A DNA stretch of 24,000 nt, taken from assembly GCA_016702705.1 (NCBI GenBank), contig JADJDM010000009.1, positions 58,596 through 82,595 on the forward strand. Reading direction: 5' to 3'. The notes beneath the pieces were generated by a model. That model ran no database searches, had not been told where the DNA came from, and worked only from the letters and a program-made list of their open reading frames with translations. Shown piece after piece: positions 2,988 to 20,441 of this stretch. The stretch comes from Bacteroidota bacterium. Lineage in GTDB: Bacteria > Bacteroidota > Bacteroidia > B-17B0 > Aurantibacillaceae. Positions within the stretch are counted from its first letter, which is position 1. Each line of letters begins with the position of its first letter. The translations under genes and the position numbers were made by a program.

Positions 2988-4985
2988 ATGATTACTGCTG
3001 AAATGCCTGTTAAATTCGAAAGAAAAAAACATAAAGATGAAACTTTATTACAGTTATATAGAAACATATTAAAGCCTCGTATGATTGAAGAAAAGATGTT
3101 AATCTTACTTCGTCAAGGAAAAATTTCGAAATGGTTTTCGGGTATTGGACAAGAAGCAATTTCCGTTGGTGTTGCAACTGCAATGGATAAAGAAGAATTT
3201 ATCTTACCAATGCATCGTAACCTTGGAGTTTTCACAACTCGTGGAATTCCTCTTAATCGTTTGTTCTCTCAGTTCACTGGTAAGCCAGGCGGATTTACAA
3301 AAGGACGTGATCGCTCATTTCATTTTGGAACACAAGAATATAAAATTGTTGGTATGATTTCTCATCTTGGTCCGCAAATGGGTGTGGCAGATGGAATTAG
3401 CTTAGCAAATAAATTAAAAGGAGCAAAATTAGCAACGGCAGTTTTCACGGGCGATGGGGCAACTAGCGAAGGTGATTTTCATGAAAGTATGAACGTTGCT
3501 GCTGTGTGGGATTTACCAGTAATTTTTGTAATTGAAAATAATGGTTACGGACTTTCAACACCAAGTGCAGAGCAATTTAAGTGCAAACAATTTATTGATA
3601 AGGCTATTGGTTACGGAATTGAAGGATTTCAAGTTGATGGAAATAATGTATTAAAAGTATTTGAAGCAGTTAAACGTATTACAGAAGAAATAAGAGAAAG
3701 ACCTCGCCCTGTTTTATTAGAGTGTATGACTTTCCGTATGCGTGGACACGAAGAGGCATCAGGGACAAAATATATTCCTAAAGAATTATTTGAGCAATGG
3801 GGTAAAAAAGATCCAGTTCAAAATTTCGAAAAATGGTTGTTAGATGAAGGTGTGTTGACAGAAGAAATTATCGAAAACATACGTGCTGAATACAAAAAGG
3901 AAATTGAAGATGGTTTAGAAATTACATTTAATGAAACTATCCCAACTCCTGATACAGCATTGGAATTGCGCGATATGTACAAACCATTTGTTAATCCAAA
4001 TATTCAACCAAGTGGAAATAAAACTAACAAACGTTTTATTGATGCCTTATCGGATGGTATGCGCCAAGCAATGCAAAAGCATTCGAATTTGGTGTTGATG
4101 GGACAAGATATTGCAGAGTACGGTGGGGCATTTAAAATTACGGATGGTTTTGTCGCTGAGTTTGGTAAGGCAAGAGTGCGTAATACTCCATTGTGCGAAT
4201 CAGCAATTTTAGGAACAGGTTTTGGTTTAAGTATTAACGGACACAAAGCGATGGTAGAAATGCAGTTCGCTGATTTCGTTTCGGAAGGTATTACACAAAT
4301 TGTAAATAATTTAGCTAAATCGCATTACCGTTGGGGACAACATGCAGATGTAGTTGTGCGTATGCCTACAGGTGCAGGTGTTGCAGCTGGACCATTCCAT
4401 TCACAAAGTAACGAAGCTTGGTTTTTTAAAACACCAGGATTAAAAATTGCTTATCCAGCTTTTCCATCTGATGCAAAAGGATTATTGTTAAGTGCCTTTG
4501 AAGATCCAAATCCTGTTATGTTTTTTGAGCATAAAGGTTTGTATAGAAGTATTACAGAAGATATCTCTGACGATTATTATACTATTCCTTTTGGACAAGC
4601 ACGCCTTGTAAAAGAAGGAACTCAAGTTTCTATTATAACTTACGGAATGGGTGTGCATTGGGCAATTGAGTTGTTAGAAAAACATCCAGAAATTTCTGCA
4701 GACTTAGTTGACTTAAGAACATTAGCACCATTGGATGTAGAAACAATTCATGCTTCTGTCAAGAAAACTGGTAGAGCATTTATTTTGCATGAAGATACCA
4801 TCACTGGTGGAATAGGAGGAGAGTTAAGCGCATTGATTTCTGAACATTGTTTTGAATACTTGGATGCACCTGTTGCACGTGAAGGAAGTTTAGATACTCC
4901 AGTTCCAATGAATGCAGATTTAGAAATTAATTTTTTGCCAAAGGAAAGGTTTGCAAAAAAACTAATTGATTTAATTAACTACTAA
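2988..4985 (+). CDS. Fused E1 alpha/beta component of a 2-oxoacid (branched-chain/2-oxoisovalerate type) dehydrogenase, TPP-dependent
   Basis: This is track ORF 2904..4985, with the start moved to MITAEMPVKFERKK at 2988 because promoter boxes lie inside the longer version. The alpha part has a TPP-binding motif (GDGATSEGDFHESMNVAAVWDLPVIFVIENNGYG). The beta part follows (VLMGQDIAEYGGAFKITDGF...NTPLCESAILGTGFGLS...DLRTLAPLD). Confidence 0.9.
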   Translation: MITAEMPVKFERKKHKDETLLQLYRNILKPRMIEEKMLILLRQGKISKWFSGIGQEAISVGVATAMDKEEFILPMHRNLGVFTTRGIPLNRLFSQFTGKPGGFTKGRDRSFHFGTQEYKIVGMISHLGPQMGVADGISLANKLKGAKLATAVFTGDGATSEGDFHESMNVAAVWDLPVIFVIENNGYGLSTPSAEQFKCKQFIDKAIGYGIEGFQVDGNNVLKVFEAVKRITEEIRERPRPVLLECMTFRMRGHEEASGTKYIPKELFEQWGKKDPVQNFEKWLLDEGVLTEEIIENIRAEYKKEIEDGLEITFNETIPTPDTALELRDMYKPFVNPNIQPSGNKTNKRFIDALSDGMRQAMQKHSNLVLMGQDIAEYGGAFKITDGFVAEFGKARVRNTPLCESAILGTGFGLSINGHKAMVEMQFADFVSEGITQIVNNLAKSHYRWGQHADVVVRMPTGAGVAAGPFHSQSNEAWFFKTPGLKIAYPAFPSDAKGLLLSAFEDPNPVMFFEHKGLYRSITEDISDDYYTIPFGQARLVKEGTQVSIITYGMGVHWAIELLEKHPEISADLVDLRTLAPLDVETIHASVKKTGRAFILHEDTITGGIGGELSALISEHCFEYLDAPVAREGSLDTPVPMNADLEINFLPKERFAKKLIDLINY

Positions 4986-5260: not shown

Positions 5261-5409
5261 TTCATTTATTTTTACCACTTATGGATTGATTTATCGTTTA
5301 AACTAATTAAACCCTGCCGTTTAATAAAAAAGTGTTGCGCGAATAAGTATTTCCTTTACTTTCGCTCTCGGATTCGATAATTACCCTAATCAAACCGATA
5401 AGAACAAAA

Positions 5410-6037: not shown

Positions 6038-7975
6038 TTAGATCACATCACCTTTTTTGTCATCCTTTTTAGCAGTTTTACTGTTTTCTTCAATTGTTTT
6101 CTTTGTCATATCATCCATTAATTTTAAACCAAGTAAACCGCTAATTGGTCCGTTTGGTCCGCCATCTCCAGAGATTAACACATCAGGGATAACTTTGATT
6201 TTATCCTTACCAATTGCTTCCGTAATTTTTAACCGTGTAAAGTTATCGCCACCCATTGCAGTTACCGCAAGGTTATATGATTCTGCATTTGATTTACCAA
6301 TTGCTAAAATCTTCTCTGCTTCTGCTTTACCTGTTACACTAATTTGTTCAGCATTTGCATTAGCTAAAGCTTTAATTTTTTCTGCTTCAGCGTTTGCAGT
6401 TACTTTTGTTTTTTCTGCATCTGCACTTGCAATTACTTTTAACCTGTCAGCTTCTGCATTCGAAGAAATTTTTACACTTTGCGCTTCACCCGTTGCTTTC
6501 TTAACCGCAGCATCTGCAATACGTTCAGAGATTAATACACCTTGATCTGCTTTCACAATTTCTTTTTGCATATCAGCTACCGCAGTTTCTTTTTCTAATG
6601 CCTGACGTGTAACCTCTGCTCTTTTTTGTGTTTCAAAAGTGGTGTTTTGCTCCTCCGCAATTTTACGATCAGTTAATGTTTTCATTAAACTTTCTGGCGG
6701 AACAATATCTCCAATTAAAGTATCTACACCATTTACATTGTATTGATCTAATACTTCACTTATACGTTTTTTCGCTGCGTCTTGTCTTTCCTTACGTGAA
6801 CTTAAGAACGCAATTACATCACTGTCTTGCGCTGAGTTACGGAAGTAGTTACCAATGGTTGGTTCTAATACTTGTCCAACTAAGTTCATCATACTACCAA
6901 AACGTGCAATTACTTTTGGAGCTTCCGTTGTAGGAATGTGAATGATTTGCGATACATCTAAATTAAAAGGGAAACCATCTTTTGAACGCACAGTAATAGT
7001 AGATAAATTTTTATCTAATTGATGTGATTCACTTCTTGCATTTGCCCAGTTTAAAACTAAGTTAGTTGTTGGCACTAATTCAACACGCATAATAAAAGTA
7101 TTGATCGGGTATTTACCTGGCCCTAAAGGCTCAGCCCACACACCTTTTTCACCTTTACTTACAATATTACCATGTTTAAATTCTGCCCCGCTTAAATCTT
7201 TACCATCTTGTCCAACATACGAAATAACAACACCAACATAACCAATTGGAATCTCTGTCATTTTAATTTGCTCTACTTGGATAAACCAAGGATTTAAATA
7301 ATATGAACCCGCTAAAATAATTTCGGGTTGTAAACCTTTGTTACCTCCATTAGCTAAGAAAGCGTCGCAATCTTGGAAATTGTTATGACCTTTAGTTGGT
7401 TTACCTGCAATATTTCCTTCATCAATTGGTAAACCATCCATTGTTGTTACTACACCAACCATGTTTTCGGTAATGTGTGTCATATCATACGTCATGATAT
7501 CAAACAAAAACGTATTGATACGATATGTACCCGCAGTAATAATTGCCGACTGACGTCCTTTACGTCCACCATGATTAAAAAAGGCAGCAGCATCTTGAAA
7601 AGAATCACACTCCACTTTACGAGCTAATATAAATCCTGTTTCTAATTCTGCACCATCTTTCGCCACTAATAAACCAATTTTACCTTCAGGGATAACAGTA
7701 AAACTTTGTTGTTTAATTTCAAATTGCCACACCCAGTACCAAAAGTAAATTCCTGGTGCTAAGCTTTGCGCTTGAAAACCTGCTTCACCATTTACTGCAA
7801 TAATTCTACCTGCAGGTAATTCTTTGTTGGCTCCAAATAAAACAAATTTCTTCGTTACAAGTCCAATCTTGTCTTCAGGGATAATAATAATTCCGAACAG
7901 TCGGAAAATAAGTTTGTAAAAAATTAAACAAACGATTGGGATGAGTACCCACCAATACTTTAATAAAGCTTCCAT
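6038..7975 (-). CDS. Flotillin / SPFH (band-7) family membrane protein, YqiK-like
   Basis: N-terminal TM segment (YWWVLIPIVCLIFYKLIF). SPFH core (ITVRSKDGFPFNLDVSQIIHI...). Ala/Glu-rich flotillin tail (ANAEAEKIKALANANAEQISVTGKAEAEKILAIGKSNAESY). Confidence 0.85.
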   Translation of the reverse strand: MEALLKYWWVLIPIVCLIFYKLIFRLFGIIIIPEDKIGLVTKKFVLFGANKELPAGRIIAVNGEAGFQAQSLAPGIYFWYWVWQFEIKQQSFTVIPEGKIGLLVAKDGAELETGFILARKVECDSFQDAAAFFNHGGRKGRQSAIITAGTYRINTFLFDIMTYDMTHITENMVGVVTTMDGLPIDEGNIAGKPTKGHNNFQDCDAFLANGGNKGLQPEIILAGSYYLNPWFIQVEQIKMTEIPIGYVGVVISYVGQDGKDLSGAEFKHGNIVSKGEKGVWAEPLGPGKYPINTFIMRVELVPTTNLVLNWANARSESHQLDKNLSTITVRSKDGFPFNLDVSQIIHIPTTEAPKVIARFGSMMNLVGQVLEPTIGNYFRNSAQDSDVIAFLSSRKERQDAAKKRISEVLDQYNVNGVDTLIGDIVPPESLMKTLTDRKIAEEQNTTFETQKRAEVTRQALEKETAVADMQKEIVKADQGVLISERIADAAVKKATGEAQSVKISSNAEADRLKVIASADAEKTKVTANAEAEKIKALANANAEQISVTGKAEAEKILAIGKSNAESYNLAVTAMGGDNFTRLKITEAIGKDKIKVIPDVLISGDGGPNGPISGLLGLKLMDDMTKKTIEENSKTAKKDDKKGDVI

Positions 7976-9470: not shown

Positions 9471-9541
9471 GGCTCCATCGGAGCCTCCTATTTCTATACT
9501 ACATCAATACTAATGCAGTCAAGCCCCAGCGGGGCGACCTG
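9471..9541. repeat. Left REP doublet (two GC hairpins)
   Basis: GGCTCC-ATC-GGAGCC (9471-9485), then CCTATTTCTA spacer, then AAGCCCCAGCGGGGCGACCTG (9521-9541), which contains the hairpin GCCCC-AGC-GGGGC. The last 21 nt are the exact reverse complement of 10010-10030. Confidence 0.85.
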
Positions 9542-9542
9542 T

Positions 9543-10004
9543 TCATTCTTCGAAGTCGAAAAGATATTTCTGGTCGTAACTAATATCAAAGTCTTTAAGT
9601 AATTCAAGATACTCTTCTTTAAAACGTTTCTTTGTATGATGTCCTTTCTGATTAAGAATATATTTTGCTACTTTGTCTAAATCCCAATGACCATATGAAA
9701 AAGCACCGAAGCCTTCTTGCCAATTAAACTTTCCTTGTATCCAGTTTTGTTCGTTTATGAATTTAGAGTAAGCTGCTTTAATGTCTCTTACTAAATCTGA
9801 AATACTTATTGATGGTTTAAAGCCTACTAATACATGTGTGTGGTCGGGCATACAATAGATGGCAATTAATTTTTGACCTCTGTTTTGTACTATACCCGAA
9901 ATGAACTTTTGCAACTCTTCTCTATTGGTTTCAGAAATAAGATTTTGTCGTCCTTTAACTACGAAGACAATTTGAAGATATATCTGAGTATATGTATTTG
10001 CTAT
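9543..10004 (-). CDS. REP-associated tyrosine transposase (RAYT, IS200/IS605 TnpA-like Y1 HUH enzyme), with no canonical start codon at the family N-terminus
   Basis: Track ORF 9543..9914 starts at a TTG. The frame is open upstream and reads (I)ANTYTQIYLQIVFVVKGRQNLISETNREELQKFISGIVQNRGQKLIAIYCMPDHTHVLVGFKP...AKYILNQKGHH. This carries the HUH motif (HTH) and the catalytic Tyr motif (YxxxQ). The family normally begins M-(A/S)-NTYTQI; here that codon is ATA (10002-10004). Confidence 0.75.
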   Translation of the reverse strand: MANTYTQIYLQIVFVVKGRQNLISETNREELQKFISGIVQNRGQKLIAIYCMPDHTHVLVGFKPSISISDLVRDIKAAYSKFINEQNWIQGKFNWQEGFGAFSYGHWDLDKVAKYILNQKGHHTKKRFKEEYLELLKDFDISYDQKYLFDFEE

Positions 10005-10009
10005 ACTTA

Positions 10010-10080
10010 CAGGTCGCCCCGCTGGGGCTTAATAGGTTTTTGTTTCTAGTTAGTTAGAAATAGGTTGCCCCGATGGGGCT
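10010..10080. repeat. Right REP doublet (inverted copy of the left one)
   Basis: CAGGTCGCCCCGCTGGGGCTT (10010-10030), then TAGAAATAGG spacer, then GCCCC-GAT-GGGGC (10067-10079). The reverse complement aligns with 9471-9541 along its whole length. Confidence 0.85.
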
Positions 10081-10138
10081 TTTAATTTACTTTATGTTCG
10101 CGTTCGCTCGCCATTGTAGTTTTGTACAAACTATATAT

Positions 10139-12379
10139 TTATACCACAATATTTATAATCTTCCCTGGCACCACAATTACTTTCTTAGGTGCTTTACCAT
10201 CTAAGTAAGTTCCTGTTTGTTGTAAAGCAAGAATTTCTTTTTCTACATCTTCTTTGCTTAAGCTTAAATCAAACTCCACGTTAAATCTAACTTTACCATT
10301 AAACGAAACTGGGTAATTGAAAGATGATTCTTTTACAAACTCCTCGTTAAACATAGGGAACGGGGCAAATGCAATGCTTTCTGTATTACCCAATTTTTCC
10401 CAAAGCTCTTCTGTAATATGCGGGGCATAAGGAGAAATTAAAACCAATAGTTGTTCTAAAACTGATTTCTTATTGCATTTTAAATCTGTTAACTCATTTA
10501 CACAAATCATAAAACTACTTACCGACGTGTTAAACGAAAAACGATCGATATCATCTGTGATTTTTTTAATTGTTTTATGTAGTGTTTTTAATTCGTCTTT
10601 TGTTGGAGCTTCAGCGTTTACTTTAGCGCTTCCATCTTCTTGTATATTAAATAATCTCCAAAGTTTTTTTAAGAAACCTGCAACACCTGTAATACCATTC
10701 GTATTCCAAGGCTTGCTTAACTCTAATGGACCTAAAAACATTTCGTAAAGGCGTAATGTATCTGCCCCGAATTTCACACAAATGTCATCAGGAGAAACAA
10801 CGTTCCATTTCGACTTGGACATTTTTTCCACTTCCCATCCACAAATAAATTCGCCATTCTCTTCTTTTTCAAATATTGCTGATTTAAATTCAGGTCTCCA
10901 TTTTATAAATTCATCAATACTTAGAGTATCATTGTGAACAATATTAACATCAACATGAGATTTTGTAATATTAAAACTGGTCAAGTGAATGTCGGAGTTA
11001 GCACCATAAGTTGATGCTATATTTTCTTTTATTACTTTTTCTATTTTGAAATAAGTTTCAGAATCTTTCTTTTCTAATAATTCTGCTATTGATTTAGTGA
11101 CAAAGATTCTTTTTAACTCATTAAAATCAGTATCTCCAGGTCTAACCAACATTGGAGCAACCCAATAGGTATAATTACTTCTGCCTTGTATCATCCCTTG
11201 ATTAATCAACTTCTTAGCAGGTTCATCAAAATTTATAAAACCTCTGTCTTTTAAAAACATGGTCCAAAAACGTACATACAACAAATGCCCCGTTGCATGC
11301 TCGCTACCGCCTAAATACAAATCAACTTGTTGCCAGTAGTCGACTGCGTTTTTACTTACAAATTCTTTTTCGTTGTTGGCATCCATGTAACGCAAAAAGT
11401 ACCACGAGCTTCCTGCCCAGCCTGGCATAGTAGTGTGCTCGTATTCAAATTGCCCTTTGTATTTCCAATCCTTCGCACGTGCTAGTGGCGGCTCACCATC
11501 TTCAGTTGGTAAAAATTTATCTACTTCAGGTAAACGCAATGGCAATTCATCTTCTGGTAACACATGTGGTACTCCGTTTTTGTAATACACTGGAATTGGT
11601 TCACCCCAATAACGCTGGCGACCAAATACGGCATCGCGTAAACGATAATTTATTTTACCTTTACCAATTTCTTTTTTCTCTATTTCTTCAATTGCTTTTT
11701 TAATAGCAGCTTTTACTTCAAGTCCGTTTAAGAAATCGGAGTTAATCATTTTTCCTTCTTTCTCGCCCCAAGCATCTTCATCAAATGAATGAGCAGTAGT
11801 AGGTTCAATTACTTGCGGAAGCGCTAATCCAAAATGTTTTGCAAATTTATAATCGCGGACATCATGCGCGGGAACTGCCATTACAGCGCCTGTTCCGTAA
11901 CCGGCCAATACATAATCACCAACCCAAACTGGAATTGGTTTTCCAGTAAACGGATGCTCAACATAAGCACCAGTAAATACACCAGTAATTTTATTTACAT
12001 CAGCTTGGCGCTCGCGTTCGCTTCTGTTTTTTGCTTTAATAACGTATTCATCAACTGCAGCTTTTTGTTCAGCTGTTGTAATTTCAGTTACTAATTCATG
12101 CTCAGGTGCAAGTGTTACAAACGAAACTCCGAAAATGGTATCAGGGCGAGTGGTGAACACTTCGATGGTTTTAGCCTCTCCCTCCGCCTCCCTCTCCACG
12201 GGAGAGGGAATCGATGCTACTCGAGATTTAATAGAAGCTAAAACAGTATCGTGGTCGTTTAACACTTGTTCGTTTGTAAAGCGAATAACTTCAAAACCTA
12301 ACTTGTTTAATACATCAGTTCTTGCAGCATCTCTTTCTTGTGTTGAATTATGAATTTCACCATCAACTTCGATAATCAA
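10139..12379 (-). CDS. leuS: Leucyl-tRNA synthetase, C-terminal ORF (CP1 editing domain, KMSKS, anticodon-binding and C-terminal domains). The first 69 codons belong to the inserted DUF559 cassette.
   Basis: After MIIEVDGEIH...EAEGEA (cassette) it reads KTIEVFTTRPDTIFGVSFVTLAPEHE (Thr-rich editing motif) ...AVPAHDVRDYKFA...GGSEHATGHLLYVRFW...VEKMSKSKWNVV. The track start is a TTG, in the same frame as the upstream ORF. Confidence 0.9.
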   Translation of the reverse strand: MIIEVDGEIHNSTQERDAARTDVLNKLGFEVIRFTNEQVLNDHDTVLASIKSRVASIPSPVEREAEGEAKTIEVFTTRPDTIFGVSFVTLAPEHELVTEITTAEQKAAVDEYVIKAKNRSERERQADVNKITGVFTGAYVEHPFTGKPIPVWVGDYVLAGYGTGAVMAVPAHDVRDYKFAKHFGLALPQVIEPTTAHSFDEDAWGEKEGKMINSDFLNGLEVKAAIKKAIEEIEKKEIGKGKINYRLRDAVFGRQRYWGEPIPVYYKNGVPHVLPEDELPLRLPEVDKFLPTEDGEPPLARAKDWKYKGQFEYEHTTMPGWAGSSWYFLRYMDANNEKEFVSKNAVDYWQQVDLYLGGSEHATGHLLYVRFWTMFLKDRGFINFDEPAKKLINQGMIQGRSNYTYWVAPMLVRPGDTDFNELKRIFVTKSIAELLEKKDSETYFKIEKVIKENIASTYGANSDIHLTSFNITKSHVDVNIVHNDTLSIDEFIKWRPEFKSAIFEKEENGEFICGWEVEKMSKSKWNVVSPDDICVKFGADTLRLYEMFLGPLELSKPWNTNGITGVAGFLKKLWRLFNIQEDGSAKVNAEAPTKDELKTLHKTIKKITDDIDRFSFNTSVSSFMICVNELTDLKCNKKSVLEQLLVLISPYAPHITEELWEKLGNTESIAFAPFPMFNEEFVKESSFNYPVSFNGKVRFNVEFDLSLSKEDVEKEILALQQTGTYLDGKAPKKVIVVPGKIINIVV

Positions 12380-12613
12380 GTTTTTTTCAATGCAAATAAA
12401 ATCTGCAATGTAAGTTTAGATTGCATGTTGTCTTCTAAACTTAACACCCAAATTTTTATTTCTTACACTTTGCCACAAGGCATCTTCAGCCTCAGTTTGT
12501 GGTTGTCTATTCTCACGCGCAAATTGTTTAAGTAATGTATAGATTTCAGCATTGGCAGTCTGCCAAGAAAACCTATCCCCCTTCTCCCGTGGAGAAGGAC
12601 CGGGGATGAGGCT
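12173..12613 (-). mobile_element. In-frame 441-bp cassette inside leuS: a DUF559 (Vsr-like PD-(D/E)xK) endonuclease domain bracketed by hairpin-forming inverted repeats and interrupted by one TAA
   Basis: The inserted codons read ...[95 protein letters not shown]..., the DUF559 signature. The terminal hairpins are CCCTCTCC-ACG-GGAGAGGG (12190-12208) and CCTTCTCC-CGT-GGAGAAGG (12580-12598), with outer AGCCTC/GAGGCT ends. The outer boundaries are uncertain by a few nt. Confidence 0.75.
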
Positions 12614-13498
12614 GAATCTCAGACTCGACCCCTCACTTCTTCCTATCCAATATCTCTGCGCTTCTTTTAAACTATCTGTCCAATCAATTTTATCTAATCC
12701 ATCTAACAAACGTTGAGAGTATGCAGTAATACGCATGCTCCATTGTTTCATTAATTTTCTTTCTACTGGATATCCACCACGCTCACTAACTCCGTCTTTT
12801 ACTTCATCATTGGCAAGCACTGTTCCTAAAGCGGGGCACCAGTTTACATAAGCTTCACCTAAATAAGCAATACGAAAATTCATTAAAATTTCGCTGCGCT
12901 TTTTCTCAGGAAAGTTTTTCCAATCATTAGGAGAGAAGGCAGTTAATTCTTTTTCAATTTCTCCAGTTAAAATATCATGTGTTAATCCTTTAAAACCTTC
13001 TGTATCGAAAATATGCATCAAGGTTTCAATTGCTTCAGCTTTATTAGTGCGTGGGTTGTACCAGCTGTTGAACAACTGAATAAAAATCCATTGCGTCCAT
13101 TTATAATATTCAGGGTCAGAAGTTCTTACTTCTCTGTCCCAATCAAATGAAAAACCAATTTTGTCTAGTTGCTCGCGGTAACGTGCAATGTTTTGTTCGG
13201 TTGTAATTGCAGGATGTTGCCCCGTTTGTATTGCATATTGCTCAGCAGGTAAACCAAATGAGTCGTAACCCATTGGATGCAATACATTAAATCCTTTATG
13301 ACGTTTGTAACGAGATACAATATCAGAAGCAATATAACCCAGCGGATGACCTACGTGTAAGCCTGCTCCAGATGGGTAAGGAAACATATCTAATACATAG
13401 TATTTTGGTTTTGAACCATCATTACTTGCTTTAAATGTTTTATTAGTAGCCCAGTTCTTTTGCCACTTCTTTTCTATCTCCGTAAAATTGTATTCCAT
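12416..13498 (-). CDS. leuS: Leucyl-tRNA synthetase, N-terminal ORF (first half of the Rossmann fold with HIGH motif). The last 65 codons belong to the inserted cassette, and the ORF ends at an in-frame TAA.
   Basis: [16 protein letters not shown]...[18 protein letters not shown] (HIGH)...[15 protein letters not shown]...[18 protein letters not shown], then cassette sequence up to FRRQHAI-stop. Confidence 0.9.
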
Positions 13499-13592
13499 AA
13501 GTCAAAAATAAGAGGTCGAATTTACGAAAAATAGGGGTTTCGGGGCTCATTTTTTAAGAAAATGATTACATTTAAACTATATAAATTATTGC

Positions 13593-15698
13593 ATGAATAA
13601 AATAGTAAAACTGTTGCTTGTGTTTTTAATTACTGGTTCTTCTTTGTTTGCACAAAAGCAAAGGAAGATAGATAGTTTAAAAACGATGCTTTCGGGCAGT
13701 ATTCATGATACAATAAGAACAAAAACATTAAATGCTTTAGCAAAATTGTATTGGACAAATAATCCAGATACCGCAATGGTATTGGTTCTTCAATCAGAAA
13801 AAGTAGCCGAAAAATTGAAGGATAAAAAGTACCAATGTATTACAACAATTTACAAAGCATATATAATTTCGGCACTAGGTAATTATGATAGTGCTATTGT
13901 AGTTTACCAGCAAGCAATTGATTTATCTAAAAAAAATAAAAAGGATAAACCACTTGGGCAAGCATTAACCGCTTTAGGTAATGTGTATAATATTATTGGC
14001 GATTATGATAGTGCAATTAAATATTATATGGAAGCCTTAACAATTCAGGAGCGACTGGCAGATAAAGTTGGAATGGCAAAAACTTATAATAGTTTGGGTG
14101 TTTTGTTCGAGTGGCAAAAGGATTATAAAAGTGCGCTTAACTACCATAAACAAGCCTTCGTAATAAAAACGGAATTAGAAGATTCTGTTGAAATGGCAAC
14201 ATCTTTAAATAATATGGGAATTGTTTATGAATCGATGAAGGATACGGAGAATGCATTAAAGCATCACCTACAATCATTGGAAATTAGGAAACTTATTGAT
14301 GATAAGAATGGTTTGATTATGTCCTACACAAATTTGGGAAATATTTATTCTCATAATAATAAATCAAAAGAGGCAATTGATTTTTTAAGTAAGGCTTATG
14401 CCTTAGCAATTGAAATAAAAGATAGACTTAATTTGGCTAGAGTTGCCTTTGATTTGGGAAATCATTACTTTATAATTAAAGAGTATGAGAAGGGAGTAAA
14501 ATATATTTTGGAGGCTGAGGGGATTTCAGAGGAAATGGAGATTAAAGAATTACAGAGAGATGTTTATAAAGAGCTTTCAGATTATTTTATAATGAAGAAA
14601 GATTACAAGGCTGCTTTGGATTATTCCTTAAAGTATAGAGATGTAAATGATAGTTTGTACAATGAAAATAAAACAAAGGAGATACAAGGTTTAAATTCGA
14701 AATACCAAAGTGAAAAGAAAGAACAAGAAATAAATTCGCTTAATCAACAAAGTAAAATTCAGCAATTGGATATTAAGCAAAAGAGAACATCTATGTACTC
14801 TTTGTTTGCAGGAGTTTTGTTGTTAATATTAATCGCAATCATTTTATTTAATAGAAATAGAATTAAGCAAAAGGCGAATAAAGAATTAGCCGAAAAAAAT
14901 AATTTGATTGAACATCAAAAGCATCTTGTTGAAGAAAAAAACCATGAAATTACCGATAGTATTAATTACGCTAAACGTATTCAAACTGCTTTGCTGCCTT
15001 CAGAGGATTCATTTAAAGAATTAATCCCGCAATCCTTCGTTTTATTTAAACCAAAGGATATTGTTTCCGGCGATTTCTTTTGGATAAATGGAAAGGATAA
15101 TTTTATTTTTTATGTAGCTGCTGATTGCACCGGGCATGGTGTTCCAGGAGCATTTATGAGTATGTTAGGAACCTCGTTTTTAAATGAAATTATTAATGAA
15201 AAAGATGTTATTGAACCTGGCGATATTTTGGATTTATTGAAAATAAAAATCATCAAATCACTAAAGCAAAAGGGTGAAGTGGGTAGCAATAAAGATGGAA
15301 TGGATATGGTACTTTGCAGGATAGACACTTCAAAAAACGAATTAGTTTTTGCTGCAGCAAATAATCCTTTATGGTTATTAAGAGATGGTGAAATAATTGA
15401 ATACAAAGCCGATAAACAACCTGTAGGTATTGGTTCAGAAGGATTTGAGCATTTTAATCAACATACTATCCAATTACTAAAAGGCGACTTAGTTTATACT
15501 TTTAGTGATGGTTATGCAGATCAATTTGGTGGACCTAAAGGAAAGAAATTTAAGTACAAACAAATGGAGGAAATTATACTTGCAAATGCGAACGAATCAA
15601 TGGAATTCCAAAAGAATGGTTTGGATGAGCGTTTTGAAAAGTGGAGAGGTGAATTGGAGCAAGTAGATGATGTTTGCATCATTGGAGTGAAAATATAA
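13593..15698 (+). CDS. TPR-repeat sensor with one transmembrane segment and a C-terminal PP2C/SpoIIE-type serine phosphatase domain
   Basis: Signal peptide, then multiple TPR units (ALGNVYNIIGDYDSAIKYYMEAL, etc.), a coiled coil and a TM segment (MYSLFAGVLLLILIAIILF). The SpoIIE motifs follow (INYAKRIQTALLP, SGDFFW, ADCTGHGVPGAFMSM, DGMDM, SDGYADQFGG, QVDDVCIIGVKI). Confidence 0.88.
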   Translation: MNKIVKLLLVFLITGSSLFAQKQRKIDSLKTMLSGSIHDTIRTKTLNALAKLYWTNNPDTAMVLVLQSEKVAEKLKDKKYQCITTIYKAYIISALGNYDSAIVVYQQAIDLSKKNKKDKPLGQALTALGNVYNIIGDYDSAIKYYMEALTIQERLADKVGMAKTYNSLGVLFEWQKDYKSALNYHKQAFVIKTELEDSVEMATSLNNMGIVYESMKDTENALKHHLQSLEIRKLIDDKNGLIMSYTNLGNIYSHNNKSKEAIDFLSKAYALAIEIKDRLNLARVAFDLGNHYFIIKEYEKGVKYILEAEGISEEMEIKELQRDVYKELSDYFIMKKDYKAALDYSLKYRDVNDSLYNENKTKEIQGLNSKYQSEKKEQEINSLNQQSKIQQLDIKQKRTSMYSLFAGVLLLILIAIILFNRNRIKQKANKELAEKNNLIEHQKHLVEEKNHEITDSINYAKRIQTALLPSEDSFKELIPQSFVLFKPKDIVSGDFFWINGKDNFIFYVAADCTGHGVPGAFMSMLGTSFLNEIINEKDVIEPGDILDLLKIKIIKSLKQKGEVGSNKDGMDMVLCRIDTSKNELVFAAANNPLWLLRDGEIIEYKADKQPVGIGSEGFEHFNQHTIQLLKGDLVYTFSDGYADQFGGPKGKKFKYKQMEEIILANANESMEFQKNGLDERFEKWRGELEQVDDVCIIGVKI

Positions 15699-15700
15699 AG

Positions 15701-15732
15701 ATAAGGCTTCAATTATGAAGCCTTATCTTTTT
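15701..15732. terminator. Bidirectional intrinsic terminator between convergent genes
   Basis: ATAAGGCTTC-AATTAT-GAAGCCTTAT forms a 10-bp stem and is followed by CTTTTT. The opposite flank is also T-rich. Confidence 0.8.
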
Positions 15733-15748
15733 AAAACGGAGTTAATAA

Positions 15749-16546: not shown

Positions 16547-16837
16547 ACTACATTTTTTTAAGGTGATTAATAAAATAAGTAAAGCGCTTTACTATCTTTC
16601 GATTTTTAGTGTTGCGCAGCACTTCCAATCAATCGACAATTCAAAAGTATATATAGCACATTCATAAAACTACATTCATCTGTGATGTGGCAGCAACTAT
16701 TTTTTAAGTGGTAGCTTTTAGGTGATATTTGGTAAGAACAGATATTGAGTTGTTGAATTAATGAGTTATTGAATTTATTATCAATTGTATGAAAATTATT
16801 TCTCACTAAATTCATTTGACTTGTAAATCAATAATTC

Positions 16838-16960
16838 AAGGGAATCTCAAGTGATTCATTTATCGAGGCGAACAAAAAATTAAAACGTAGTGTGCTACGG
16901 CACATGAGGCTTTAAATTTTGAAGTTCAACGATGAGAAATGGATTAATTGAGATTCCCTT
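16838..16960. repeat. 123-nt rod-like inverted repeat (MITE-like element or large 3' stem-loop) abutting the stop codon of the upstream OMP gene
   Basis: Perfect 13-bp termini, AAGGGAATCTCAA (16838-16850) and TTGAGATTCCCTT (16948-16960). Inward of these are about 15 further mostly paired positions (with G-U pairs and a few mismatches) and an apical hairpin TGTGC-TACG-GCACA (16891-16904). Confidence 0.6.
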
Positions 16961-19900
16961 AAAAGAAAGCGCGTACTTGTGCTCCACCAATATGTATGAT
17001 GCGGTTTCCAGGGGATTTACGTCCTTCGTAATTAAAGCTTATTTGCAAATAAGCACTTAGGTTTTGTTGGTAATTAAGGTTCCAAGTAAAGTTATCTCCT
17101 GGTTTTAAGGAGTTCAACATTTCGAAAGCAATTGGTGAGTTTAATACATCATTGTATGAAATTCGTAAATAATCGGCACGCAGTATAAAACTTCCTTTTG
17201 ATAGTTTGTTGTATTTTAATTCAAGTAAAATATCATCAATACTTGCTTTTTGATTGCCATATTCTTTTGCGTTTTTTTTCTCACTTCGTTTGTATCCAAT
17301 GCTTGTTCTAAAGGCTGTGTTAGGTTGATAAGAAATACGCGGCTCTGTTTCATAAAACTCAATATTATAATTTCTGTTACCTAAATAGGCGGCAAAAGAG
17401 TTTTTGTTTCCTGCAGTTGAATTAGTAAAAAATCCCCAAGCTTTGGTAAAGTTAATTCGTGTTCTTAATTCGTGTTGTATGGTTGCTCTGCTTTCTAATC
17501 CATTTACTAAAAGTTGCTTTATTTTATTGTCCTGGTAATTATAATCAAAACCACCAATAGCAGAGTTTTGATTGAAGAAAAATGCTTGTCTAAATGATGA
17601 GTTGTTACTCATTAATGTTGAATCGGGAATGCTAGTGTCAAATGGATTGTAAATCCTGTCGTTACTAGTTGCAATCGATTTGTTATCTGTTCTGTAAACT
17701 GTTTGTGTTGAAAAGCGCGACATGAGTTTAACAAACTTATTCGACTTTTCATTTTTAAATACGCTTGGTCGCAAATAAATACTTCCACTAAATTGATTGT
17801 GTGCCGCTTTTACATAGCTATTAGTTGGCGTAAATATTTTAATGAATGTTGCTTGGTCGGTGTATTGGGCAATTTCAAATTCGTTTAGTTCTTTAATTCC
17901 GTTTCCATTATAATCATTCCAATAATATTGTCCTTGCCCCGCTGCAACTTGTATAAAAGAATATTCTTTGCGTTGCTCTAATCCATATCCAATTTCGTAG
18001 AAAATATTTCCTTGAATAAATCCTTTCCAAATTTTTGGAGCATATTCTAATCTACTTAATAAAGTATTATCTGGTTTTGTGCTAATTAAAAGTGAATCTA
18101 ATATTTGTAACTGACGATAAATTACCGTTGTTTTTATTGTGTGATTTCTAATGCTATTGATGTCAGCGCTAAATCCATAGTTTTGCGCATAAGCGGTTGA
18201 TTTAAGCCTGTTGCCACTTGCTTTTTTATCTGTACGCTCACGATAAAAAATTTTAAATACGTTTCCAGTTGTATCTGCTTTGCTAATGTTTCCTTCACGT
18301 TCCCAAAAAGCATAACTATTGGCGAGCACCGAATCTTTTGATTTATAGTTGAATTGGTTTTGTTCTAACTCATCAATGTAACCGAAAGCAACTTTCCTAA
18401 AAACATATTTTGCATTTGTTTTGTGTCGATAAAATTGCGTGTTAGTATTTGTGAATTTATCTTTTGATTGCAAGTATGTTGGATTAAACTGAATGCTTAA
18501 TGGTCCAACTAAATAACTGTTCATTAATTGATGACGGAAACCTTCGTAATTGCCTTCTTCAATAAAAGCATTTCCAGTATAAATGCTTTTCATTTTTCCT
18601 TTTATATCAAAACCAATTTGAGCGCCTGCAATGTGCTGAATGTTTTTGACCGAGTCGTTTCTTCTGTTCCAATCACGTGTAAATTCGATGGCTCTAAAAC
18701 GCTCTATTTGCGAAAAATGTTTGTCGATTACTTCGTAAGAAGCATTTGTAATGATAAATGATTTTGTTTGTGAGCTATCTGTTTTTTTTATTTCGAATTT
18801 TTTATCAAAATTTATTTTACCTCCGTAGCCTTTGTCATCATTACTGTTGGCAGATGAAAAAGTATTGATGTCATTTTTGGTGAGTGCACCTTCCCAAGTT
18901 ATTGCCCCGTTCTTTTTTAGTTTGTATGCGCCAGTGGTTACATACATTTGTTTTTGTTTGGGCGTAACAATAATTACAATAGGTTCATAATTCCCTTGTT
19001 TAATTCCTAAAATAGGTTCTGTCCATTGGTATACTTTTCCATTTGCCAAGCTTTGTATTTGTTTGTAATTTCCATTTCCTTCGCCAACATAACTAAAGCG
19101 TACACGATAAGCAGTGTCGGGCGATGTAGAATATTTATAAATTGGATACGTGCCACTTGCAGCTATGGAATCTAATTTGTCATAAAACACTTCGGTAGTA
19201 TTAAAGTCGGAAACGCTTGCGCCATCTGTAATTGCCAAGCTTAATGTGTCACCAATGTTTCTTAAAAGTAATTTTTCGCTTGCACTTAACTCTTGTTGAA
19301 AGGGTTTGTTTTTATTGTCTTGTTCGCTAAAAATATGAAATCCTAAATCTAAATTTGTCGATTGATATTCTTCTCCAATATAATATAGCGAACGGTTGTA
19401 ATTTCTTTCTGAGTATTGAAATTCAACCGTGATACGTTTATCTTTTGTAATAATTTGTTTTGCTGTAAATGTAATTTCCGAAGTGTTATAATCAATTACA
19501 TACTCATTCTCTTGCCCACGTTGTACAAGCTTTCCATCAATGTAAACTTTTTCCGTTCCAGATAAAACAATAATAAATAATTCGTTATCTGCTCCTCGTA
19601 AACGATAAGGACCTTGGTTGTTTTCAATTCCTATAATAGTATTACGCGCAAACTTTCCTCTTGAAATTGCTCCCGATACTTTAGTGCTAAGTTTGGAAGT
19701 TTTTATTGCATTTGAATCTAAAACAAAATTGTTTTCGAAATATAAACCTTGGGTGCGTTTGTAATAATTCATGAAATAACTCTTTGGCCGGCTCAACTGA
19801 AAATCACCCATAATAAGTTTATTGTTATCATCGCTTAGCTGAATAAAAACCTTATCAAACTCCTGTAATTGCTGTGTATTTCCGTCGGGTTGAATTGGAA

Positions 19901-20441
19901 TGTTATTATCCGTTGCAGCTAATACCAAATCAATATCGTTACTTAATTTACCTGCAACTTGCAAATTCATATTTGAATTTACAACAACATCTTGGTTGTT
20001 TCCAAAACTAATTCCACGTGATATACTACCGTTTTTACTTAATCCATCATTTTGGAAAATAGGAGTAATAGGATTAATTGCATTGTAATTAATAATAAAT
20101 GGATTTTGCCCCAAACTTTGATCTCTGTTAAGCATTGAGATGTCCTTATTAAAATGTTCCTTATTAAAATTAATAGGATACACTTTGTAAGATATGCGAA
20201 CGCTATCGCTAGTGTTTTTTAAAATCAGAAAATTCTTTTTAGAATCGAAAATATAATCTTTGTTAGAAATTAATTTGTTGCCACTTGTAATAATTAAACT
20301 TCCATCGACAATACTTAACGAATCTAAAAAAATTGTGTCTTTACTTGCTTTTAAAAATAAGTTGCGTTGAGAGCCGGTTTGCGCTTTAACTTGTATTACT
20401 ACAATAAAAAAGAATAGTATGGCTTTTATATACTTCAACAC
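16959..20441 (-). CDS. Large (1160 aa) predicted outer-membrane beta-barrel protein, function unknown
   Basis: GTG start, signal peptide (AILFFFIVVIQVKAQ), and Asn/Tyr/Ser/Gly-rich sequence with the alternating pattern typical of beta strands. The C-terminus (...GGAQVRAFF) ends in an aromatic residue, as OMP sorting signals do. Confidence 0.8.
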   Translation of the reverse strand: MLKYIKAILFFFIVVIQVKAQTGSQRNLFLKASKDTIFLDSLSIVDGSLIITSGNKLISNKDYIFDSKKNFLILKNTSDSVRISYKVYPINFNKEHFNKDISMLNRDQSLGQNPFIINYNAINPITPIFQNDGLSKNGSISRGISFGNNQDVVVNSNMNLQVAGKLSNDIDLVLAATDNNIPIQPDGNTQQLQEFDKVFIQLSDDNNKLIMGDFQLSRPKSYFMNYYKRTQGLYFENNFVLDSNAIKTSKLSTKVSGAISRGKFARNTIIGIENNQGPYRLRGADNELFIIVLSGTEKVYIDGKLVQRGQENEYVIDYNTSEITFTAKQIITKDKRITVEFQYSERNYNRSLYYIGEEYQSTNLDLGFHIFSEQDNKNKPFQQELSASEKLLLRNIGDTLSLAITDGASVSDFNTTEVFYDKLDSIAASGTYPIYKYSTSPDTAYRVRFSYVGEGNGNYKQIQSLANGKVYQWTEPILGIKQGNYEPIVIIVTPKQKQMYVTTGAYKLKKNGAITWEGALTKNDINTFSSANSNDDKGYGGKINFDKKFEIKKTDSSQTKSFIITNASYEVIDKHFSQIERFRAIEFTRDWNRRNDSVKNIQHIAGAQIGFDIKGKMKSIYTGNAFIEEGNYEGFRHQLMNSYLVGPLSIQFNPTYLQSKDKFTNTNTQFYRHKTNAKYVFRKVAFGYIDELEQNQFNYKSKDSVLANSYAFWEREGNISKADTTGNVFKIFYRERTDKKASGNRLKSTAYAQNYGFSADINSIRNHTIKTTVIYRQLQILDSLLISTKPDNTLLSRLEYAPKIWKGFIQGNIFYEIGYGLEQRKEYSFIQVAAGQGQYYWNDYNGNGIKELNEFEIAQYTDQATFIKIFTPTNSYVKAAHNQFSGSIYLRPSVFKNEKSNKFVKLMSRFSTQTVYRTDNKSIATSNDRIYNPFDTSIPDSTLMSNNSSFRQAFFFNQNSAIGGFDYNYQDNKIKQLLVNGLESRATIQHELRTRINFTKAWGFFTNSTAGNKNSFAAYLGNRNYNIEFYETEPRISYQPNTAFRTSIGYKRSEKKNAKEYGNQKASIDDILLELKYNKLSKGSFILRADYLRISYNDVLNSPIAFEMLNSLKPGDNFTWNLNYQQNLSAYLQISFNYEGRKSPGNRIIHIGGAQVRAFF

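Follow-up and report, generated by a model that had tools for sequence, protein, structure and literature searches.

What is a nuclease reading frame doing in the middle of leuS, the essential gene for leucyl-tRNA synthetase (LeuRS), in a Bacteroidota bacterium, where it is read in the same frame as its host and bounded by inverted repeats? The known way for selfish nucleases to survive in genes is to be spliced out, either as RNA (introns) or as protein (inteins). The question is raised by a 24,000-nt stretch of contig JADJDM010000009.1 (assembly GCA_016702705.1; hereafter the window), in which leuS, on the minus strand (13498→10139), harbors a 441-nt cassette (12173..12613) encoding a DUF559 nuclease domain between two hairpin-forming termini. 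We consider it probable that the cassette is a selfish element of Bacteroidota, consisting of a DUF559 nuclease and inverted hairpin termini, which is translated within the host protein and spreads by homing-type conversion.

In-frame interruption of leuS

The LeuRS reading frame begins with the ATG at 13498 and runs through residues 1-295 (12614..13498, minus strand), which make up the N-terminal half of the catalytic domain, including the HIGH region, match Pfam tRNA-synt_1 and display 97-98% protein identity to the LeuRS proteins P0004 and P0005. It is then interrupted by 147 codons, from an outer AGCCTC to an outer GAGGCT (12173..12613, minus strand), which are absent from the syntenic relatives L002-L004 and L086. 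At 12172 the LeuRS frame picks up again with KTIEVFTTRPDT, and the second part of the gene (10139..12172, minus strand; Pfam tRNA-synt_1_2 and Anticodon_1) encodes the editing domain, the remaining catalytic core and the anticodon-binding and C-terminal domains. Both junctions between insert and leuS are clean and in frame. An earlier sequence-only reading of this DNA had described LeuRS as interrupted in frame between the ATG at 13498 and a resumption at 12172 by a 441-bp insert with both ends on codon boundaries (12613→12173), and re-reading the sequence gave the same result on each of these points. Its further statement that the host frame is preserved holds across both junctions and fails inside the insert, where an in-frame TAA leaves LeuRS not intact in this copy.

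Alignment to Thermus thermophilus LeuRS (1h3n/2v0c) placed the insert between F234 and I243, directly preceding the TTRPDT motif (ending at T252), which is the connection into the CP1 editing domain; the site does lead from the catalytic core into the editing domain, as had been supposed. The GC content is 0.57-0.60 at both insert ends compared with 0.34 for the whole window. There is no Met codon in the insert, and the nuclease has neither a start codon nor a terminal stop codon of its own; since it is devoid of Met codons, the cassette relies on the translation signals of its host.

Identity of the inserted nuclease

The residue pattern of the 147 codons had suggested DUF559 (PF04480), a Vsr-like PD-(D/E)xK nuclease family, and a profile search with the stop codon replaced by X bore this out, the insert matching PF04480 with E = 7.1e-37 and 126.1 bits (cut-off 20.6) over profile positions 3-107 of 109. 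The nuclease domain corresponds to insert residues 28-131 (12221..12532, minus strand). DUF559 and MTES_1575 were the only Pfam matches in the insert, NCBIfam PRK09767 (DUF559) scored 68.6 bits, which is under its equivalog cut-off of 218, and the insert also resembles in sequence a DUF559-type protein of solved structure, PDB entry 3hrl (E = 4.5e-20). The D..E-x-D-G..H residues do not vary in the family, and the window copy has all of the family-invariant residues, among them D71, E82, D84, G85, H88, R111 and N114, with the TAA interrupting the domain between residues 65 and 67.

For the Vsr-like fold comparison, the window copy was replaced by a homolog, the free-standing P0130, which shares about 50% identity with the insert. 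The AlphaFold2 model of P0130, with a predicted local distance difference test score (pLDDT) of 82.7, matched in Foldseek 3hrl (E = 1.6e-7), the catalytic domain of I-Bth0305I (3r3p; E = 4.6e-5, template-modelling score 0.79) and Vsr (1cw0, E = 0.07). The precedent of Vsr-fold homing endonucleases, proposed from the sequence beforehand, is thereby supported at the level of predicted structure; phmmer detected no sequence similarity between the cassette nuclease and I-Bth0305I. The database name of P0130, 'methionine synthase/leucyl-tRNA synthetase/RecG', shows that annotation pipelines have met DUF559 fusions without interpreting them.

Comparing the window with L085, an insert-bearing leuS locus of another species, gave a ratio of non-synonymous to synonymous substitution (dN/dS) of 0.12 for the whole insert, 0.06 for the nuclease core both before and after the TAA, and 0.057 for leuS. 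Outside the insert, the changes specific to the window lineage amount to 61 synonymous and 6 non-synonymous (49 and 4, respectively, in leuS part 2), and two empty relatives display 51:1 and 53:3. These substitution patterns show purifying selection on both leuS and the nuclease, neither of which appears to be decaying, and the cassette is predicted to encode a functional nuclease, its nuclease-family open reading frame (ORF) being under purifying selection. A literature search did not find a published specificity for any DUF559 protein, and a PADLOC scan yielded a marginal match to a methyl-directed restriction enzyme model only and no link to a defence system.

Recent gain of the cassette by allele replacement

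Presence and absence of the cassette vary at one precise leuS site among close relatives. A protein search retrieved LeuRS P0003-P0009, which are 98-99% identical to the window LeuRS and lack the insert, and, together with alignment, revealed DUF559 at the window's site in many other Bacteroidota LeuRS. At the DNA level, the empty leuS alleles of L002-L004 and L086 are 94-96% identical to that of the window across leuS and lie in the same gene order (TPR/SpoIIE protein, leuS, Y1 transposase). Inspection of leuS orthologs, which the sequence-only reading had recommended, therefore did uncover an empty site, in LeuRS of 97-99% protein identity and the same neighbourhood, and it is not the case that all related LeuRS carry a homologous segment without the inverted repeats.

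The difference between filled and empty alleles exceeds the cassette itself, as 474 nt in the window stand for 51 nt of the empty allele (in L002, the sequence around CGCTCAGAAGGATCTTCGCTACAATTCAAGATT). The empty alleles contain eight loop codons (KIQNSKFK or KTQDAKHT); the window keeps two of them (KT) and six are gone, the donor-like remnant AAA ACC ATC (K-T-I; 12164..12172, minus strand) 3′ of the cassette being all that is left of the loop. Directly 5′ of the cassette, a donor-like, co-converted leuS stretch of 45 nt (12614..12658, minus strand) differs synonymously from the nearest empty alleles in nearly every codon, and the differences include switches between Ser and Arg codon families. 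Identity to the empty L002 and L086 is 93-100% up to about coding position 825 and then falls to 55-67% in these 45 nt, which in turn are 96% identical to L085, whose leuS is otherwise 70-90% identical. Because the flank is donor-like and the loop codons were replaced, the alignments show a recent gain of the cassette via gene conversion from a leuS allele already carrying it, a footprint of the kind that homing leaves behind. The earlier description of a cassette inserted in leuS is thus correct as to a foreign segment in frame and needs amending as to a simple insertion, since six loop codons were replaced and about 45 nt of foreign leuS were brought along.

A separate difference was observed in L086 (P0004), in which LeuRS codons ~310-450, past the TTRPDT region, contain a wholly different segment of ~140 aa in the variable domain before KMSKS. 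Only 4-25 of 50 residues are identical per block in this segment, though this LeuRS is otherwise 98% identical to those of the window and L002, and it has the appearance of another mosaic or replacement event in leuS, independent of the first.

Cassettes in diverse Bacteroidota genes

Relatives of the cassette were collected by translated search (tblastn) with one genome per species, and the best 80 of at least 579 relatives were analysed. DUF559 lies in frame within a long stop-free ORF at 69 of the 80 loci; at 67 of these, no fewer than 50 aa of host protein are present on each side, and the other two are truncated by contig ends. Free-standing DUF559 accounts for 11 loci, mostly from Prevotellaceae and Bacteroidaceae. 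Clustering of the host proteins after removal of the insert resulted in 18 clusters, named by Pfam. The host families include LeuRS (two sites), MetH (at least 4 positions), RecG, IleRS, MetRS and an IcmF-like fused mutase (two sites), as well as UDP-GlcNAc 2-epimerase, GH31, DegT, MazG, a MiaB-like radical-SAM enzyme, NAD-epimerase, MurF-Alr, adenine deaminase, RecJ, CinA, TGT and an AddB-like nuclease, and in total about 19 protein families carry the cassette. An HsdM-like methylase was found as a further host of DUF559 by protein search. On an IMG/VR contig classed as viral (IMGVR_UViG_2894185313_000007; L087, 1-3177), ValRS contains a cassette just before ATTRPET, at a position paralogous to LeuRS site 1, with two further solo hairpin units downstream; the class Ia synthetases with a cassette are LeuRS, IleRS, ValRS and MetRS.

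The architecture is present in more than 20 independent assemblies, including those of type strains, and fusions were found in the cultured strains Cellulophaga baltica DSM 24729 (leuS, L067), Pedobacter sp. Leaf194 (leuS, site 2) and Flavobacterium sp. RS13.1 (metH; complete genome NZ_CP182487.1). As cultured strains are among the hosts, the fused genes work. In a control set of 36 distant DUF559 relatives on viral contigs, one is embedded in a host ORF (the ValRS mentioned above), and almost all are free-standing and without hairpins; BLAST searches of phages and plasmids returned only distant free-standing DUF559 genes from other phyla. The insertion sites adjoin highly conserved motifs, such as WIGRSEG/FTTRPDT in LeuRS and DEQH/TATPIPRT in RecG, and in 51 of 81 cases a cassette shares its host gene with its nearest DUF559 relative, compared with about 15% by chance.

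Hairpin termini

GC-rich hairpins bracket the insert at 12580-12598 (CCTTCTCC-CGT-GGAGAAGG) and 12189-12209 (TCCCTCTCC-ACG-GGAGAGGGA), and the hairpin pattern occurs 2 times in the 24-kb window, compared with 0.01 expected from shuffles. That such inverted repeats flank the cassette and are translated, as first noticed in the sequence, is accordingly well founded. On the coding strand, the 5′ terminal unit (12580..12613, minus strand) is composed of the box AGCCTCATCCCC, GGT and the hairpin CCTTCTCC-ACG-GGAGAAGG; it matches the family consensus and is translated. The 3′ terminal unit (12173..12208, minus strand) is an inverted copy of the 5′ unit, consisting of the hairpin CCCTCTCC-CGT-GGAGAGGG and AGGCGGAGGGAGAGGCT, and is translated as PSPVEREAEGEA. 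Each terminus is the inverted repeat of the other, down to the loops (ACG/CGT, coding strand), and folding prediction suggests that as RNA they could pair into one long stem (z = -4.2).

Aligning the left ends of the family with the reverse complement of the right ends gave the terminal consensus (A/G)GCCTCACCCC-N3-CCCCTCTCC-N3-GGAGAGGGG, which is common to cassettes in many host genes and to free-standing copies. Each unit is an 11-nt box (AGCCTCAYCCC) plus a hairpin, and the inverted termini span ~35-45 nt. When perfect GC-rich stems of at least 7 bp within 150 nt of DUF559 were counted, a hairpin was found beside DUF559 in 62 of the 80 loci, on both sides in 29 of them, and in 1.8% of 1276 control segments from the same loci. 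The termini were also looked for elsewhere, as the sequence-only reading had proposed. Dozens of Bacteroidota genomes contain DUF559 copies flanked by the same box-plus-hairpin, also within genes other than leuS, and almost always the copies are in frame.

The 5′ arm of the stem is always pyrimidine-only and the 3′ arm purine-only (CCCTCTCC/GGAGAGGG, CCTTCTCC/GGAGAAGG, CCTCCCC/GGGGAGG, TCCCCCC/GGGGGGA and others), and owing to this composition the units are free of stop codons in all six frames. The stems vary between lineages yet stay complementary. In 12 of the 29 loci with hairpins on both sides, and in the window, the loop at one end is the exact reverse complement of that at the other, indicating that the ends are true inverted repeats, and at different loci the terminal units are read in different frames (GGEA versus GVRL, for example), indicating that they are conserved as DNA and not as peptide. 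The units encode linkers rich in Pro, Ser, Gly and Glu. An AlphaFold model of an intact LeuRS with insert (P0001) is poor overall (pLDDT 61.6, predicted template-modelling score 0.42) and was used for the confidence of DUF559 versus linkers only; in it the DUF559 part reaches a pLDDT of 73-89 and both unit-encoded segments stay below 50, in keeping with flexible linkers.

The purine arms (GGAGAGGG, GGAGG; for instance at 12189-12209 in the window) resemble Shine-Dalgarno sequences. Bacteroidota mostly do not use Shine-Dalgarno pairing, and one may speculate that this little use might let the units be tolerated inside genes.

Termini able to pair into a long RNA stem could bring exon ends together, and a TAA would be harmless in a segment that is excised, so we considered whether the insert is removed before the protein functions, either as an intron with paired termini or as an intein-like element. 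An Rfam scan of 11500-13600 at E ≤ 1 revealed no group I or II intron and gave only two chance matches, both outside the insert, and a Pfam scan found no Hint or intein domain in the insert, in agreement with the initial remark that intein junction residues and an intron are missing. The insert ends in ...AEGEA with K as the next residue; junction residues differ among homologous inserts and the termini are read in different frames, so that there are no conserved splice residues. Moreover, 69 of the 80 copies are stop-free and in frame with the downstream host, which efficient excision would not need. RNA excision via the long terminal stem was rejected as the principal explanation, family members being kept in frame and stop-free, and we regard removal of either kind as extremely unlikely.

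Strong purifying selection (dN/dS 0.06) and a reading frame kept in cultured organisms would fit a lineage-specific accessory domain useful to the host, such as a nuclease or nucleic-acid-binding module recruited by LeuRS. We hold this to be very unlikely, given that LeuRS proteins 98-99% identical do without the insert, that DUF559 is found in about 19 functionally unrelated proteins with several sites per protein, and that the insert came with a foreign flank, is bounded by DNA-level inverted repeats in varying frames and contains a stop codon in the window copy.

The stop codon in the window copy

The in-frame TAA within the nuclease domain (12416..12418, minus strand; QHAI*TYIADF) takes the place of a codon that is GGT (Gly) in the insert-bearing L085. 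The sequence-only reading had printed it as an asterisk in the translation and had not commented on it. The TAA is genuine as read, and because of it mechanical annotation divides leuS into an ORF of 360 aa (12416-13498) and one of 746 aa that starts at a TTG (10139-12379). All 19 complete LeuRS+insert ORFs in the family sample are uninterrupted, the window copy being the exception. An alternative genetic code that reads TAA as sense was rejected, as TAA is the stop codon of 11 of the 15 ORFs of the window. Past the TAA, the first in-frame candidate restart codon is a TTG (12377..12379, minus strand) preceded by the A-rich GAAAAAAAC, the hypothetical start of a C-terminal LeuRS fragment. A two-piece LeuRS with a restart at TTG 12379 is plausible, because class I synthetases tolerate splits around CP1 and the LeuRS of Aquifex aeolicus is naturally composed of two subunits; other possible readings of the TAA are a sequencing error and a second leuS elsewhere in the genome. 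Given that the remainder of leuS and both nuclease halves are under purifying selection, the TAA would be very recent, tolerated (with a two-piece enzyme) or a sequence error.

Should leuS be dead or mis-assembled, the insert would be incidental damage or the product of a chimeric assembly. The in-frame stop agrees with this, as do an exact look-up of the 360-aa ORF, which gave no identical ORF on record, an exact scan of Joint Genome Institute (JGI) metagenomes for the 5′ terminus of the window, which gave 0 matches and hence neither a donor nor sister copies, and the neighbouring RAYT gene, which has also lost its ATG. We nonetheless judge it quite improbable, since the independent assemblies mentioned above, type strains among them, display the same architecture, and since leuS is otherwise undamaged in both of its parts, which evolve under purifying selection, and the junctions are clean and in frame.

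Another split leuS was observed in the complete genome of Maribacter sp. Hal144 (CP107030.2; L001, 5001-8502), where the gene with its site-1 cassette is called as three ORFs of 703, 311 and 123 aa. This strain was set aside as an example of an isolate with a broken leuS, as the nearby truB is also split in two, which suggests assembly frameshifts; the leuS split is probably due to frameshift errors in the assembly, though it could represent further interruptions.

Cargo-less hairpin units

Hairpin units are also present without the nuclease. Across 530 kb of loci, 43 units were counted at a distance of over 200 nt from the closest DUF559, and none was found beyond the cassette in the rest of the 24-kb window, in L002 or in L086. 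Cargo-less pairs and solo units sit in frame in GH31, LeuRS and MurF-Alr genes (L022, L017 and L040). The pairs consist of a left and a right unit back to back, measure ~90 nt and are in frame in genes, as in MurF-Alr of L040 (1775-1850); L022 contains two near-identical copies of one cargo-less pair, at 4745-4850 and 7170-7270, 2.4 kb apart, and L017 contains one solo unit twice in a single leuS (4794-4813 and 5295-5314). LeuRS site 2, which holds a full cassette in other genomes, is likewise occupied by solo units in some. The cargo-less units are either footprints of nuclease loss or non-autonomous mobile derivatives.

These units bring up the explanation that the hairpin units are primary, resembling repetitive extragenic palindromic (REP) sequences or miniature inverted-repeat transposable elements (MITEs) and adapted to coding sequence, and that DUF559 mobilises or maintains them as RAYT does REP/REPIN. 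A nuclease between two units would then be the autonomous form, new sites would be gained via transposition or repair-mediated copying at hairpins, and the window event would be a secondary spread through recombination. Such a scheme accounts for a nuclease gene between inverted units alongside dispersed cargo-less solo units and pairs, for the near-identical copies within one genome (L022) and the unit found twice in one leuS (L017), and for a terminal consensus common to about 19 host gene families. It is also in line with the ~69% identity among Chitinophagales cassettes in four genes, with the free-standing and intergenic copies that bear the same termini (L024, L035, L065 and L084), and with the enrichment of DUF559 genes among inverted-repeat-flanked predicted inversion targets (PMC9881135). 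On the other hand, inspection of 81 elements, the boundaries of which are approximate, made no target-site duplication or common target motif evident at the borders. We know of no PD-(D/E)xK nuclease that transposes DNA on its own. The window event is clearly an allele replacement, with loop codons lost and a foreign flank, and not an insertion into the resident allele; the window, L002 and L086 are without further units, and the solo units could equally be footprints after nuclease loss. We therefore see the primacy of the hairpin units as possible and rather doubtful; it is compatible with spread by homing-type conversion.

Programmed inversion between the inverted termini, an idea prompted by PMC9881135, was rejected, as the inverted cassette gives at least 4 stops in the host frame and inversion cannot, for that reason, be a useful switch in leuS.

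Homing-type conversion and a putative second route

In the explanation favored here, a selfish cassette spreading by homing-type conversion, the cassette would occupy a surface loop of the host protein and be translated straight through as an extra domain, with nothing spliced out. The encoded nuclease would cut the empty allele, and repair would copy the cassette into it, as in intron-less homing. We infer this mode because the predicted fold of P0130 matches I-Bth0305I, because the insertion sites adjoin conserved motifs, and because nearest relatives share the host gene.

Several points weigh against this account. The case for homing is made from sequence footprints alone, as to our knowledge neither a cleavage activity nor a target is known for DUF559 proteins. 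The nuclease of the window copy, being truncated, cannot at present drive anything. The 45-nt flank is closer to L085 (1 difference) than the dS of ~1.1-1.3 between these alleles predicts, and flank and terminus together (12614-12658 plus the 5′ terminal unit 12580-12613) differ at 1 of ~55 nt, although synonymous divergence elsewhere is saturated (dS ~1.1-2.5); this suggests constraint at the nucleotide level or mosaic recombination between filled alleles. Terminal inverted repeats are not required by classical homing endonuclease genes, and hence homing leaves the conserved termini unexplained. The cassettes at LeuRS site 2 do not group together, and those of Chitinophagales share ~69% identity although they sit in four different genes (MetH, MetRS, adenine deaminase and CinA), both of which suggest gene-to-gene moves that homing alone does not explain. 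Finally, the near-identical cargo-less copies within one genome look like transposition of a non-autonomous form. The site-2 scatter and the ~69% identity, taken with the inverted termini and the cargo-less copies, suggest that new genes would be reached by a second, transposition-like or hairpin-targeted route.

More broadly, the family might represent a new class of bacterial mobile element, made up of nuclease cassettes with hairpin inverted termini and their cargo-less miniatures, specialised for coding sequence and moving by conversion between alleles and by a hairpin-dependent step to new genes, a proposal that we offer tentatively and with somewhat more doubt than conviction. Elements of this class would borrow the promoter and the start and stop codons of the host, and the inserted domain would be flanked by linkers that are stop-free in all six frames. 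If true, this would give homing-type elements a third way of doing no harm to the genes they inhabit, beside introns and inteins, as the nuclease seems to stay in the host protein as a surface domain and the DNA termini appear translatable in any frame. If confirmed, it would explain many odd annotations in Bacteroidota ('DUF559 domain-containing' or over-long tRNA synthetases, MetH and RecG), provide a natural map of insertion-tolerant loops in essential enzymes for protein engineering, and reveal a family of compact nucleases of interest for their specificity. The window offers a recent invasion with filled and empty alleles, making homing directly testable.

Comparison with known systems

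With homing endonuclease genes, including those of the Vsr-fold I-Bth0305I (3r3p) and of intron-less enzymes, the cassette shares the fold match, site polymorphism, co-conversion of the flank and sites beside conserved motifs. It differs from them in lying neither in an intron or intein nor between genes, in its hairpin termini, in a nuclease that stays as an internal domain of the host protein, and in a cleavage activity that is predicted only. Rickettsia palindromic elements, as Ogata et al. reportedly described in Science in 2000, insert in frame in protein-coding genes. Like them, the cassette has palindromic DNA that is tolerated in ORFs and translated to surface peptides, and the cargo-less units behave in this way; unlike them, as they encode no protein, it carries a nuclease gene, and it belongs to another phylum, apparently has another sequence and possesses pyrimidine/purine arms that are stop-free in six frames. 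By analogy, the cassette can be described as uniting the logic of a homing endonuclease gene with the capacity of Rickettsia palindromic elements to be tolerated in frame.

REP/REPIN sequences with their RAYT transposases (PMC3116915) resemble the family in having an enzyme gene between two inverted hairpin repeats plus dispersed solo and doublet copies. RAYT, however, is an HUH Y1 transposase and REPs are extragenic, whereas the cassette encodes a PD-(D/E)xK nuclease and its units are intragenic and translated. Inteins likewise reside in frame at conserved sites of essential genes, are sporadic and often contain a homing nuclease; the cassette differs in having no Hint domain, no conserved junction residues and no protein-splicing catalyst. 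As in transposons with terminal inverted repeats and MITEs, such repeats are present in the cassette, but neither a target-site duplication nor a recognised transposase was seen, DUF559 being the only protein.

Genes split by the insertion of a nuclease gene offer a further parallel, and Friedrich et al. are said to have described in PNAS in 2007 how mobE splits nrdA of phage Aeh1. 'Fractured genes' (PMC2677866) and the insertional fission of cox2 (PMC5374615) have also been described. Like such genes, the essential leuS of the window is left as two ORFs that might still assemble; unlike them, it is split by a nonsense codon within an otherwise read-through cassette, which is an exception in the family. 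In the searchable literature we found no description of the cassette architecture, the only trace being a statistical enrichment of DUF559 genes among 'programmed inversion' candidates flanked by inverted repeats (PMC9881135), and this accords with the sequence-only reading, to which a DUF559 cassette with translated hairpin termini was not a characterised mobile system.

Other features of the window

Directly downstream of leuS is an IS200/RAYT-type Y1 transposase gene (9521-10030, ORF 9543-9914, minus strand), flanked by perfect 22-nt inverted REP-like repeats (AAGCCCCAGCGGGGCGACCTGT), a third copy of which is located at ~10060-10085. In sequence, the RAYT repeats (GCCCCAGCGGGGC...) bear no relation to the cassette termini. 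Where the L002 ortholog has its ATG start codon the window reads ATA, and the window ORF measures 123 aa compared with 153 aa.

Two further structures were observed in the window. A 30-nt inverted repeat, 83% complementary, is found at 16835-16864 and 16934-16963, just before an ORF of 1160 aa (16959-20441, minus strand). An 18-nt hairpin in 15694-15733, between convergent genes at 15698 and 15749, is probably a terminator.

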